A DNA stretch of 64,000 bases from Curvularia clavata (taxonomy: Eukaryota). The DNA is taken from assembly GCA_023920165.1 (NCBI GenBank), contig CP089274.1:4712001-4776000 (forward strand), written 5' to 3'. This document shows positions 46,601 through 52,495 of the stretch, piece by piece. Within the stretch, counting starts at the first letter, position 1. The number at the start of each line of letters is the position of its first letter. The notes beneath the pieces were generated by a model. It was not told the DNA's origin, made no database searches, and worked only from the letters and a program-made list of their open reading frames with translations. A program made the translations under genes and the position numbers.

Positions 46601-49406
46601 CTCGTCCATCACGACAGCCTAAACTTCTCCTTGGTGCCATAGTCTTTCCAGCCATCTTCCGTGCCAGATGGAGTAGGCATTACCGCCATTTCCATGAATA
46701 CATATGTCCAAACGCAACCTCCTCAATTCGCTTGATGCCTTGCACAGTCCTGCATAATCTTGATCACACGCGATCAGCTGCAACCACAGCCGAGGCGTCG
46801 AGGAACCACGCGACACGGCACAATCAAACGACGAGCCTACCGCAAGCCAGCGCGCAGTTGCACGCGTTACTCGTGAGCCCAAGATAGTCCTCGTGTCTCT
46901 TCGTAAAACCGGTTGCCGCTGTGCGCCCACATTCGAGGCGGTTGCCCTCTTGGCTGCTCACACGTTTTGAGACACCAAGCTCGACAGTGGAAGAGCATCC
47001 CAGGAGAAAAACGTCATTGGGCGCTTGACATCCTTTTGCTTTACTCGGGATGCAGCTGCTCCGCGCGCAAAAAGCATAAACAATAACTGGACCAGCAGCG
47101 AGACAGTGACGTTCAGGCGTAAAAGCAAATCCAATTTCGCGGGCAGTGGAGTCTCGAGCCACCCGTTTGTTGCGCGCTGATAAACCCACCCAATCATCAC
47201 CTTGCACAACGTGACGCAGCTGAATGCAGAACGACGTAGGTGTAGATACCTCCCAATGCGACGTCGCGCAACCTCGTGTTGTCTTTGCAGACGCCTTCCC
47301 TATCTTGTTCCGCAGCTTCACAGCCACACAAGACCAATCAGCGCGTTTTATTGAAACACGCCATCAAATTGCATGTTATGCTCGTCGCAATGTGCTGGTT
47401 GCTATTGATCACCGTCTCCCCACAAATAGCTTTTCCAATCCGACTTTGTTCTCGGCAGACTTGGTCCAACGTCAGCATACCGTTTACTCGCACAGGGTCC
47501 GGCCCGAAACATTTAGCCATAATACTGCCGGGCGAGAATTATTGGCTACATACGGCCATGTTTCTCGGCTTGCTCCGCGATATTTGGGGTTACGTGAGCG
47601 ACTCGATTCTCGATCACCGCCGACTTATGCCAATCGACAGGCCCGTCTACAATACCGAGGCAGTCGCCGCATATCCGGCCGAGTGGTGTCTATGCCAGTG
47701 CTGAAGAACAGAGTTATCGATAGCTTCTGTGACTATACACACATCCACGAGCATACTCGGCTCAGCATAATTCAACTATAGAAAAAACCATGAATATACG
47801 AAACCTCATAGGTCAACGAGCCTCTCATGCGCTCGTTCAACACGCCTCATTCGTCCCAACAGCCCTCTCATTCGGAGGTATACCGCAGGAAAGGATGTCG
47901 TGGCTTGACAACATGCATGTGCGTCTGAGATGCAATATGCATTGAAAAACACTTCACACACATATCACCCCCACATTCAGACTGCAGCATGCAAACCACG
48001 TCATCCCACACCAATACTTCTCAGCTGCATCCAGTTTCTCGCTTGCTTGCTTGTTTGTTTGTTTTGATGCTTTTTGTCGTTTGTCTTGTAAACAAAGCAA
48101 GACAAGACAAAAGAACGCATCAGGTGCCCATTCCATTGATTCGTTCGCCAATTATTTCCGTGGCGCCCGCTAGAAAAAAACGTATTCAGCCGGTTGAAAA
48201 AAGTATGAAAACAAATGTGGTAGAATAAGAAAACTGCAGCACTTCCCTGAAGAAAGAAGGAAGAATGAAGACTCCAAAAGAAATTTCACTTTTGAAGAGA
48301 AAGATTGAAAAAAGAAATATCATAAAGATGATCTCGATACCTACCCGCAGAACACGATGCAAAATCCCCGCGTTCCAGATACATACCCGCACTCTTCCCG
48401 TTACATCGTGCACTCGCTGGCTCGCTCATCAGCCAGCCACCACAGACACATGGTAAAACGGGTCGTTTGGACCCCCCTACACCCTTCTCTCACCTTGATC
48501 TACACCAAGCACTAAGCACCATGAACGAAATGCATGACCAGCTTCATCCATTGCACTCTCTTGTCCTCTCCATCGCACTCTCCAAATCATACCCCCCATA
48601 ACCAAACACGATCCGGCCAATCAGGCCATACCCCGTTCGACCACCCTCCCCAGCCACATCTGTAAAAAGTACTCTAGAAGAAAAGAAGCCAAAAAAAAAC
48701 ATCTGCTCACGTCTCCCGCCTGGTCGTTGCTCATCTGCAGCAATAATCATGCAACTAACCAACCGGTCGACGACCGGCCAGGCGGTCGGCCGATTACCTG
48801 GCCTAGTATGTACTTGCTTGCTGCCGCGCTGTCAATGCCGCAGGTACCGGGTGTGAACTACTAGACATTTTTGCTCAAAGATGGGCGGGCGACGGAACCA
48901 ACCCTGACCGCCTTTTCATGCACGCAATGCATCCACACTTCTCCACCCCACACACATACACGAGTCCAGAAGCTCCGGTGGCCCAGCCCTCGAGAATTAG
49001 TCTTTCGTCTATGTACATATGCAAGTTCCACGATGTTGCCAACTGCCGCTACAGGGAACGCTGGCTCACGGCCGTACAAGCCGGTCCGCTTGTCAGCCTT
49101 TGTTGAGGCTTATGGGTTACGGTGGCAGGTACGGTGAGAAGAGCGGTCACCTAGAGCCATCCTCAAACCGAGAAGAAGCGATTCATGCTTTGATCACGAC
49201 ATCACCACATTAACGCCGCAAGCTTCAACCATAAACAAAAACAGTAAAGCAAAATGATCATGACAAAGTATATCGATTGACGCTATGTACACTATTGACA
49301 TTGCAGATCCGCTCCCAGCCAAAAGCCTAACTAAATCGACGACTGCAAATGGTTAGCAAACCAGCCTAGCAAAAGAGCATGTACATGAGAGTAGATGGCG
49401 TGGTGC

Positions 49407-49485
49407 GAATTCAGGTCTCCAAGGTGATTGTATCTTCAATGTGATTAAGAAAGAACACAGCGAATCATGTTTTTCATCATATGAA
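49407..49485 (-). ncRNA. Box C/D snoRNA, U55-like (LSU GUCUCmCAAGG)
   Basis: C box ATGATGA, D box CTGA; 13-nt antisense TCACCTTGGAGAC to LSU GUCUCCAAGGUGA. Confidence 0.82.
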
Positions 49486-49626
49486 GGGGGATTGGGGATA
49501 GGCAAAGAGCAGCACTTACCAGAAATGCAGAATGCCAAACTGCGAAAAGCGAAAGGTAAGACTGGAATAAATGCGTCAGTGGATGTCCATGAAACACATC
49601 GATTTTCAGAAAGATTGAACAGAACA

Positions 49627-49800
49627 AGTCCATCAAGTTTCAGCCTGGATCTAGTTAGCTGACAGTTGCATAGCCATCATTTGCGCAGTACATACCTCAT
49701 TAAATCAGATTTGGTTAAGTGATCAGTATGACGGACGCTCGTTACAACGCCGCCACTCACACAGTGTGAATATCAAGAATCATCATTGCAATGATGGACT
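49627..49800 (-). ncRNA. snR51: Box C/D snoRNA snR51 homologue (25S Um2729, 18S Am100), split by nested intron 49645-49695
   Basis: C box ATGATGA; D' guide TATTCACACTG-t-GTGA; D guide CTGATTTAATGAG|g-CTGA formed only after splicing; perfect 9-bp terminal stem AGTCCATCA/TGATGGACT. Confidence 0.88.
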
Positions 49801-49890
49801 GTCTTCGAGAAAAAGAAAAAATCGTACCTGTGGAGTCTGTCAGAAAAACAATCCACAAGAGTGTATCGCCAGAAATGTGTAATGTGTAAG

Positions 49891-50026
49891 GGCAATCAGT
49901 GATGCTTGTATCAACAAGTAATGCCTCTTCCAAACACCCACAGGTTTGTACGCCTGCTTGTAACGGATGCCCAGTTGAGGTATACGTTATGTCCGCCCGA
50001 CGCATCAAAGGGTTTCATCAGGATGC
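49891..50026 (-). ncRNA. snR70: Box C/D snoRNA snR70 homologue (18S Cm1639)
   Basis: C box TGATGA, D box CTGA; guide GCGTCGGGCGG pairs with SSU CCGCCCGUCGC (one mismatch), +5 from D' CATA lands on C1639; lies between snR41 and snR51 as in the yeast cluster. Confidence 0.8.
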
Positions 50027-50136
50027 TGAGGGGTGTTCGCAGAATGCAGGATTGAAGTGAGGGGTGTATGTACCTATCAGAACACAGTTAGCGTCTTGGT
50101 TGCAGAAATAACTGTGTAAGAGTATGGTAGGATTGA

Positions 50137-50232
50137 GCAGTGTCAGACAAGGCTGAAACTAAATGCAAGGGTGTCGACATTGTATGTTCAGGTCGAGGAA
50201 TGCCTTTCCGTGTCTTTTTTTCATCACGCTGC
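50137..50232 (-). ncRNA. snR41: Box C/D snoRNA, snR41-like (18S Gm1126)
   Basis: C box GTGATGA, D' and D CTGA; 13-nt antisense to SSU CAAGGCUGAAACU placing the +5 position on G1126; D' guide antisense to CGAGGAAUGCCU. Confidence 0.88.
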
Positions 50233-50373
50233 GGGCGGGGAGGGGAGTTGGAGATGCCTTACCTTTAAGAAGATTGTATCGAGTGCTGGAAAGCTAGATG
50301 CGCTGAATCATTCTACTAAGTTTTGTTAGCCTTTGCGCAAACAAAGGTTTGTGAATATGTGTATGTGCTTGGT

Positions 50374-50455
50374 TGCATCATTGTAATTCTAGAGTTTGTA
50401 AAGTCCTTCACGATGCTGTAGGATTTGGATTGTTCGTATGTGATAATCATCTGCA
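50374..50455 (-). ncRNA. Box C/D snoRNA, U45-like (SSU Am159-equivalent) with second LSU guide
   Basis: C box ATGATTA, D box ATGA, TGCA terminal stem; 12-nt antisense to SSU GUAAUUCUAGAG (50383-50394); 11-nt antisense to LSU UUGGAUUGUUC (50425-50435). Confidence 0.8.
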
Positions 50456-52495
50456 GGAGTCGCGGGAGCTGGAATTGGCTTACCTGATGTGTTTCATTTG
50501 CGCGACTGCTGCATTAGTATTGATCAAGAGAGATATAGAAGCGCGCAAAGTAGACGCGTTGTGTGGTTGGAGATGAGGTGTTGGAGAACGGTTTTGAGCT
50601 CCAGAAATTTTAGCTCAGAGCTCGGCGCCGAGCCTCCGTAGCGCCGCTTATGTAATGGATCTGGTGGGTCAGTTGCCCAGTCAACCATCCACTCTCATCG
50701 AGGTCGAACGCAAATCTTCAACCCACCATAGGTGGTAGACTAATTAGAGTGGCATTGATTTTGGTCATATTCATGACTTGACCCAGACTCTGCATCTGTA
50801 TCAATCTCGAGCACCCTCTGTTCTATGCAGATAGCAGATCTCGAAAATTAATGTAGTTTTTTTCTTCGATCACGAGGTATCCCCTTGGTTCTAAGACTCG
50901 AGAAGGCAATGTCGGAGCAGAAGTCGATTGATGGCTGCTAAATGAGTCTAATCTTGTCGGAGAGGAATTGAAACAAGTTGGCCGAAGGCCAGATCTCAAA
51001 AAATGTTGCTAGAGGCCGTTGTTAAAAATGTTACTCTCTAAACTAGAGACTCTATCAATGCCCCCTGTATTGGCCACAGCATGTCGATTCGCATACAAAA
51101 CTTGGGATGATGCCGCATCGGAAATGTTCAGAACTAATTGCCGACGAATGTTAGAGGCCTTTGTAGGCTGACCCCAAATAAAAGAGAAATTGATGTAGCA
51201 GTTGATTTATTGGTGCTACTCAGTGTATTCACCGAATTAACCTTGAGTTTAGAGACTACACTGATAACATATATCTAGCGTGTTATTATAACTTGAAAAT
51301 GCATGATACACATCACCGATGTAATTCTGGCTACCGACGTGGCATAATACATGATCAAGCCCAAAAGATCGAGGGTGACCCATGGTCGAGTAGGTAAAGA
51401 CGACACTGAGAGACACTTGCTGAGGGTGAGTTGAGTCAATAATATGCCCAGCTACAGCCTATTAAGTAGTTGAAATGTAAAATGAACTAGCTCACATCAA
51501 TACTTGAATATTGAAAATGCCTACCGCTGAGGTGTAAATAATGGGTTCTCCCAGCCGCATCTACTCAAGCAAACATTGCACTATAGTTATAAAGCAACAT
51601 ACAAAGCATTCTCCAAACTGAATTATGTTAACGTGACAAAGTCCTACAACACAGTCAATCTCTACGTCTAGATATCATCACATAGTTACGCAATCCACAC
51701 CAACACCACCAAACTAATCTAGATACTCGATAGCAACCCCAAGAGCTCTTTCATTCCATCAAATGACATTACACTACCCGTAAGCTTGTCTATATCCTAC
51801 GCATGCCGTCCCACAAAAAACCCTCTTACGCCACCTCTGAAGAAAATCCCATAACATCACTGCCTACGCATGCTCCCTACACGAGCACCGCAAGCCCTTA
51901 GATAGTACTTAGAATCTCTTATAAACTATAGCAGTGTTTCAGCACAAACTCTAGATCTCCGAGCACTCTCCTTCTTCCCGCACTTCTGTCCCCTTCTTTT
52001 GAGAACACCACACACCTACTTACGCACCATTTCCCTTTCAGTTTCTCTACCACCGTTACAGACAGAAGTACCACGTACCATTCACACCCTCTTTTCTCTT
52101 GTTCTTCTAAGAAAAAATTACGTTTACGAACCAACCCACTCACACTTCTCATGTTCGCTGGCTTCTTAACCAGAACCCGCAAGCACCTACCTCATCCGAT
52201 CGACTCGAAAGATATTGCTATGTTTACAACCTGAATAACCAGAGTGGGAAAAGCAGATGGTGATTGACCACTATTACTGTGAGCCTTGGGCTTAGAACAT
52301 CCACATCCCCACAGAGTCTTTCTGGTGGGGAGGTTCAAGTTCTATTATGTGATAGTGTATCTGATTAACTGGTATATTGTCACGGTTACGTCTAGTTGGT
52401 GTCACTACGGCGGTTCATGGGTGTGAAGTAATTCAAGAAGAGGGAGAGCCGGTTGATTGAGAAGTGCAGTTAGGTAGATATCAGTTACCTCTAGC

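Follow-up and report, generated by a model that had tools for sequence, protein, structure and literature searches.

In Saccharomyces cerevisiae the three snoRNAs that concern us here, snR41, snR70 and snR51, are carried in that order by a single polycistronic transcript, and they are released from an unspliced precursor, being cut out by RNase III (Rnt1). The yeast cluster has no introns, as described by Luo et al. (2013, PMC3596301). The same account gives an intron-intron-intron structure for the cluster (cluster III) in all Euascomycetes examined there, with inserted introns A and C (carrying U45 and U55) and an intron B, which contains no snoRNA and separates the snR51 antisense element from box D. 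Among the 42 ESTs described by Luo et al., intron I alone was missing from 18, introns I and II from 14, and all three from 10; the counts given include none that lacked II or III while keeping I. Stepwise splicing was proposed in that paper, and a model of alternative acceptors was named and left open.

Related arrangements are described in other fungi. Unexpected peaks in spliceosome profiling led Chen et al. (bioRxiv 10.1101/226894) to a zero-length exon in SPNCRNA.445 of Schizosaccharomyces pombe, the host of snoRNA61. In the snoRNA polycistrons of Candida, Debaryomyces and Yarrowia, splicing is both nested and recursive according to Donovan et al. (2016, PMC5033589; also Mitrovich et al. 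2010, as cited there), who give, by citation, a size of zero for the exon that separates snR41 from snR70 in cluster III of Debaryomyces hansenii. Recursive splicing is also described for BOT1 of Cryptococcus neoformans (Burke et al., bioRxiv 10.1101/224170).

The probable cluster III host gene and its splice junctions

The locus analysed here is most probably the non-coding host gene of the fungal snoRNA cluster III (snR41/Afu_455, snR70, snR51) in its filamentous-ascomycete form. It lies on the minus strand of a 64-kb stretch of DNA (the window), where positions 50573–49230 read as a short-exon non-coding transcript with box C/D snoRNAs inside its introns. A search of Rfam placed Afu_455 (RF01860), the snR41 homologue, at 50231–50141 on the minus strand (61.9 bits; gathering score 48) and Afu_294 (RF01506) at 49484–49408, also minus (67.8 bits; gathering score 43). 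At a permissive threshold, the snR51 family matched at 49790–49693 with 41.9 bits, just below its gathering score of 44, and weak matches to snR41 (23.1 bits) and to snR61/Z101 overlie the two Afu families. The middle snoRNA, between the Afu_455 and snR51 matches, was read from the sequence, with a C box TGATGA at 50020–50015 and a D box at 49899–49896; it had no match in the Rfam search at E ≤ 10, and its guide block, CGGGCGGAC, is common to the middle snoRNA of relatives. Cluster III has the same succession of snR41, a middle snoRNA and snR51. The middle snoRNA is called snR70 because of the cluster order given by Luo et al. (2013, PMC3596301).

The limits of exons and introns were obtained by aligning to positions 48900–50900 the contigs of four public runs (X1, X2, X8 and X13, from four studies, of 23 runs listed). 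X1, X2 and X8 were classed as RNA by guess, and their GT-AG joints show that spliced RNA is present. Assembled contigs show the presence of a form but not its absence; rare forms are dropped and depth cannot rank isoforms. Every joint at the locus has GT..AG ends on the minus strand. The parts of the gene, in the direction of transcription, are as follows:

50484–50573, minus strand: host-gene exon 1; 5' end approximate (contig ends at 50572, 50573 and 50556 in X1, X2 and X8)
50316–50483, minus strand: intron A, 168 nt, GTAAGC...TAG (joint 50315 to 50484 in X1, X2 and X8)
50263–50315, minus strand: exon 2, 53 nt, 3' end AAAG (limits set by contig joints)
50074–50262, minus strand: intron I, 189 nt, GTAAGG...GCTAAC...TAG (joint of exon 2 to 50073)
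50141–50231, minus strand: Afu_455 (snR41 homologue), box C/D, within intron I (Rfam RF01860)
50073–50074, minus strand: first zero-length exon (acceptor G at 50074 abuts donor G at 50073)
49828–50073, minus strand: intron II, 246 nt, GTACAT...CTGAC...CAG (joint of exon 2 to 49827; 435 nt, introns I and II together)
49892–50025, limits approximate, minus strand: snR70-like box C/D snoRNA (C and D boxes read in the sequence)
49827–49828, minus strand: second zero-length exon (acceptor G at 49828 abuts donor G at 49827)
49562–49827, minus strand: intron III, 266 nt, GTACGA...ACTGAC...CAG (3' end fixed by the 701-nt joint, 50263 to 49561)
49696–49800, minus strand: snR51-like snoRNA, 5' part, with outer-stem arm, C box (49785–49780), 5' guide and 18S guide ending AATGAG
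49645–49695, minus strand: nested intron B, 51 nt, GTATGT...GCTAAC...CAG, inside the snoRNA (51-nt joint in four runs)
49627–49644, minus strand: snR51-like snoRNA, 3' part, with D box CTGA (49643–49640) and outer-stem arm
49520–49561, minus strand: exon 3, 42 nt (between the 701-nt and 177-nt joints)
49343–49519, minus strand: intron C, 177 nt, with Afu_294 at 49408–49484 (joint 49342 to 49520 in X1, X2 and X8)

Both introns that flank the core of the cluster carry an element of their own, Afu_294 in intron C and a conserved C/D-like element in intron A. In a 10-locus alignment, intron A contains the conserved blocks ACAATCCAA.TCC and CT.TAGAATTAC, after which the group that includes the window has ATGA and others have CTGA, with a degenerate C box, AGATGA, ahead of the ATGA or CTGA. 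Judged from these motifs, the element in intron A (50316–50483, minus strand) looks like a C/D snoRNA with ATGA as its D box; Rfam at E ≤ 10 gave no match over the intron.

The initial annotation had claimed that the exons between the snoRNA introns have shrunk to 0 nt at two successive sites, and both interior exons are indeed absent, in the sequence as in the contig joints. At the first site, the branch motif GCTAAC (50092–50087) is followed by a TAG ending at 50074, and GTACAT begins directly at 50073; at the second, CTGAC (49843–49839) is followed by a CAG ending at 49828, and GTACGA begins directly at 49827. The distance from the branch A to the AG is 14 nt at the first junction and 12 nt at the second. 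From 50073 to the C box of snR70 the sequence has no further GT, as had been claimed, and the proposed composite intron of 50262–49562 has the same limits as the 701-nt joint in the contigs. The annotation was thus right about three abutting introns; it had missed a fourth, the nested intron of 51 nt at 49695–49645.

AGGT is a common tetramer, which the minus strand of the window contains 200 times, and an AG could stand beside a GT by chance with no role in splicing. We counted the sites on the minus strand of the window at which YAG/GT has a YTRAY motif 8–45 nt upstream. There are 25, so that about 0.023 would be expected in a 60-nt spacer; that the two spacers between the snoRNAs hold two of them is not due to chance. 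Both sites are moreover used as acceptors in the RNA contigs. These joints, together with the conservation in relatives given below, refute a chance juxtaposition.

In X1, X2 and X8, introns A (50483–50316, 168 nt) and C (49519–49343, 177 nt) were found removed, as was the full composite intron (50262–49562; joint 50263 to 49561, 701 nt skipped), the final product retaining no nucleotide of the internal sites. Exon 2 joined to 49827 (GTACGA), with 435 nt skipped, was found in X1 and X2; it is not in the contigs of X8, which are no proof of absence. Exon 2 joined to 50073 (GTACAT), with 189 nt skipped, appears as a joint in X8 and as misaligned contigs in X1 and X2. The latter (X1 record 4 and X2 record 14) had first aligned colinearly, with two 'other letters' and a loose end of 17 nt. 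The loose end maps to exon 2 (50272–50288), and the two mismatches are precisely the two positions at which the final 9 nt of exon 2 and of intron I differ, which identifies both contigs as exon 2 joined to GTACAT. The nested intron (49695–49645, 51 nt skipped) was removed in contigs of all four runs, and is the sole joint in X13, whose contigs cover only part of the locus.

Both intermediates that the initial annotation had proposed looking for are therefore present: exon 2 (..CTTAAAG, 50263) joined to GTACAT (50073) in three studies (X1, X2 and X8), and joined to GTACGA (49827) in two (X1 and X2). It follows that both internal acceptors are in use, and with them the internal branch sites, and that the exons are of 0 nt. 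Joints removing intron II or III with intron I kept were not found in the contigs of the four runs, from which rare forms are dropped.

The contigs differ from the window at a few positions: X1 and X2 by T>C at 49606 and A>G at 50527, and X8 by T>C at 49976 and a 1-nt deletion at 49816 within a T run. These are probably strain differences, and none touches a splice site.

Exactly these three classes of junction are also predicted if 50262 is the sole functional donor and pairs with the acceptor at 50074, 49828 or 49562. The RNAs in which exon 2 is joined to GTACAT or GTACGA would then be dead-end isoforms, and snR70 and snR51 would have to be cut by endonuclease from a multi-snoRNA lariat or from the pre-RNA, in the way that Rnt1 processes the S. 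cerevisiae polycistron. Luo et al. (2013, PMC3596301) list this as an open alternative. The word depth of the intermediate contigs is similar to that of the final product, as it would be for stable isoforms, with the qualification that contig depth cannot rank the forms.

Conservation of the junctions and the proposed splicing route

Relatives of the locus were collected with a probe of 18 nt taken from the snR41 guide and D box, which gave at least 105 metagenome loci. The first junction was scored as YAG/GT with YTRAY, 40–130 nt past the snR41 D box, in the 102 loci with at least 130 nt downstream. The initial annotation had pointed to conservation of YAG/GT across relatives as a check, and the junction was present in 85/102 loci among the matches listed, compared with 35/1678 background windows of 90 nt from the upstream flank, or about 40 times the background rate. 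The other 17 of these 102 loci lack the first junction by this rule, and some of them are unlike snR41 loci. For the second junction, 54 loci were scored in which the C box and 5' guide of snR51 could be recognised; among these listed matches, 52 have AG/GT and the other two AG/GC. Under the strict rule the count was 41/54, and a further 11 loci have AG/GT with an AAG acceptor or an unusual branch motif.

Among the matches listed, the 49 loci that also have the snR51 guide form, together with the window, 35 single-linkage clusters at 80% identity, and the locus nearest to the window is 79% identical to it. That the GT after each AG is kept across some 35 clusters less than 80% identical argues that the internal donors are functional.

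Two of the 17 loci that lack the first junction (L002 and L009) have an snR70-like guide downstream, with no AG/GT in the first 60 nt past the snR41 D box; an AG and a GTATGT or GTACGT donor are apparently 4–5 nt apart. From their sequence, these loci may carry a micro-exon of 4–5 nt in place of the zero-length exon. In L018 and L056 the second junction is TAG/GC, about 326 nt past the snR41 D box, and the near-identical L044 has TAG/GT; a GC donor may serve at the recursive site in L018 and L056.

The end of exon 2 was also examined. It was counted in 77 of the 85 loci with the first junction, 8 being dropped for a missing C box or missing upstream sequence, and AAG/GT was present upstream of the snR41 C box in 72/77 (among the matches listed), with AAAG in 64 of those 72. 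Apart from its AAAG end, exon 2 shows no conservation in the 10-locus alignment. A conserved AAAG in an otherwise unconserved exon is in keeping with this end serving three donors as their exonic half.

Rfam was also run on the loci of 10 relatives, and found Afu_455 in 10/10 (one below the gathering score), Afu_294 in 7/10 (two below the gathering score) and snR51 in 3/10. In three loci (L016, L066 and L078) the two snR51 guides belong to two different snoRNAs. These loci keep a first junction of 0 nt, there is an apparent real exon of about 40 nt after snR70, and the 18S guide is contiguous with the D box, with no intron B. L078 also gave a weak match to SNORD57 (30.5 bits).

If 50262 were the only donor in use, the GT after each internal AG would be free to drift, yet it is kept at the frequencies given above, among the matches listed, in introns that have otherwise diverged. 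The only variant of this GT among the matches listed is GC, which to our knowledge is the one other donor dinucleotide tolerated by U2-type introns. The conservation of the AAAG exon end also speaks against a single donor, as does the S. pombe snoRNA host gene, in which an internal zero-length exon is described from direct end-mapping (bioRxiv 10.1101/226894). We therefore regard a choice among acceptors by one donor as unlikely.

Our preferred reading is 5'-to-3' recursive splicing through zero-length exons, to which we assign a probability of about 0.8 and which agrees with the model put forward for this cluster by Luo et al. (2013, PMC3596301). Both interior exons have been lost, leaving snoRNA-bearing introns of 189, 246 and 266 nt to abut as AG/GT. 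In the first step, exon 2 would be ligated to the first internal site, recreating a donor, AAAG/GTACAT. This donor would then be used with the next acceptor, recreating AAAG/GTACGA, which would in turn be paired with the last acceptor, at 49562. One lariat containing one snoRNA would come from each step, and the snoRNA would then be freed by debranching and trimmed by exonucleases. Separately, the nested 51-nt intron would have to be spliced from the third intron before the 18S guide and the D box of the snR51-like snoRNA could stand side by side. We infer cleavage at the regenerated donors GTACAT and GTACGA because the GT is conserved amid a diverged intron, the exon end is conserved, and there is precedent in other fungi; the release of one lariat per snoRNA and the order of the steps are likewise parts of the proposal.

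A mixture of routes would give the same end product. Some transcripts could lose the 701 nt from 50262 to 49562 at once and others stepwise, the zero-length sites raising the yield of snoRNAs and not being obligatory. The final 701-nt junction is compatible with either route, and two pathways to the same product are described for a Candida cluster (Donovan et al. 2016, PMC5033589). Both internal donors are conserved, however, which suggests that the stepwise route matters, and we think a mixture very unlikely.

Recursive splicing of this kind could also act as a kinetic gate. The recursion might be obligately ordered, and splicing kinetics, not transcription, might set the relative output of the three snoRNAs. 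AAAG would in that case be selected as the exonic half of three donors, the partly spliced RNAs would persist at levels like those of the final product, and snR51 would assemble only once removal of the nested intron gives the D-box context. Taken as a whole, we consider this rather doubtful.

An intron inside the snR51-like snoRNA

Within the snR51-like snoRNA, intron B (49695–49645) separates the 18S guide from the D box. In the Rfam snR51 alignment, the consensus 18S guide is matched up to AATGA, and there is a gap at the consensus D box. In the genome the guide ends with AATGAG at 49696, followed by the 51-nt intron and then by G and CTGA (49643–49640). The intron thus fills the gap between guide and D box, and the D box takes up the spacing of the Rfam snR51 consensus only after splicing. 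In box C/D guides it is this spacing that directs methylation of the target, here 18S. The contigs with the 51-nt joint retain flanking sequence of intron III and are unspliced across the acceptor at 49562, so the nested intron can be removed before its host intron. Its start is separated by 132 nt from the intron III donor upstream, and its end by about 68 nt from the ACTGAC branch motif downstream. A stwintron was considered and ruled out; intron B interrupts no donor, branch or acceptor signal of intron III.

A 9-bp stem, AGTCCATCA with TGATGGACT, pairs the sequence 5' of box C with that 3' of the D box beyond the intron, thereby spanning intron B. In 34/47 loci (among the matches listed) an outer stem in this position has 6 or more consecutive pairs, compared with 606/2142 mismatched-locus controls, and the stems are made of different sequences in different loci, that is, they covary. 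The nested intron itself is present in 39/48 loci (among the matches listed), with a length of 46–68 nt and a branch motif in each case. In 7/48 the guide and the D box are contiguous, without intron B, and 2/48 are too short to tell (again among the matches listed). The Rfam score was tried as a test of split against contiguous snR51 and was rejected: two contiguous loci score 57.2 (L048) and 54.1 bits (L010), but a locus with intron B (L011) also passes, at 50.7 bits.

The snoRNA might alternatively be a short form that ends at a CTGA inside the guide. Such a form would agree with a survey of Neurospora crassa (PMC2780460), whose table lists the snR51 homologue, CD6, as 76 nt long, located in 'Exon' and with a D' guide only. 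The flanking stems that this form would have do not exceed the control, 19/47 loci having 6 pairs or more, against 34/47 for the split form (among the matches listed), and we rank it low. The listing of CD6 at 76 nt and in 'Exon' may itself be a consequence of the gene being interrupted by intron B.

Comparison with known snoRNA clusters and recursive splicing

Splicing through abutting sites has been described in several settings, with which the present locus shares some features and not others. At the ratchet points of Drosophila and vertebrates (Duff 2015 and Sibley 2015, as cited in bioRxiv 10.1101/224170), AG/GT likewise regenerates a 5' splice site and leaves no trace in the final mRNA. 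As described there, those introns measure tens of kb, belong to protein-coding genes and are believed to be split on account of their length, whereas the pieces in the window are 189–266 nt long and each carries a snoRNA. The stwintrons described in filamentous fungi by Flipphi, Fekete and colleagues share consecutive splicing reactions and an intron inside an intron. In those accounts, the internal intron breaks a splice signal of the external one; intron B breaks a snoRNA, and introns I–III abut and do not nest.

The snoRNA clusters of Candida, Debaryomyces and Yarrowia are closer. As described by Donovan et al. (2016, PMC5033589), they too have one snoRNA per intron, and the zero exon between snR41 and snR70 of D. 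hansenii has its counterpart in the window. In those clusters, unlike in the window, only some junctions are of 0 nt, others being single-base or overlapping ('negative') exons, and intron B is not among the features that the paper reports for them. SPNCRNA.445 of S. pombe resembles the window in having a 3' splice site directly beside a 5' splice site within a snoRNA-host intron, conserved in relatives (bioRxiv 10.1101/226894). It belongs to another cluster and another fungal lineage, and its site came from spliceosome profiling, while the site in the window came from sequence and contigs.

The locus shows how the rule of one snoRNA per intron can outlast the complete loss of the intervening exons, and how a snoRNA can depend on the splicing of an intron within itself.

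The closest system of all is cluster III as described by Luo et al. (2013, PMC3596301), in which this arrangement is already known. The apparent order of the snoRNAs, the two missing interior exons, the nested intron B, the flanking snoRNA introns and the three classes of partly spliced RNA are all the same. Set against that description the window shows no material difference, and it is another copy of the same cluster. What is added here is modest: contigs that show the junctions in another three studies, counts made in some 100 environmental loci (among the matches listed), the conserved AAAG exon end, and the covariation of the outer stem across intron B.
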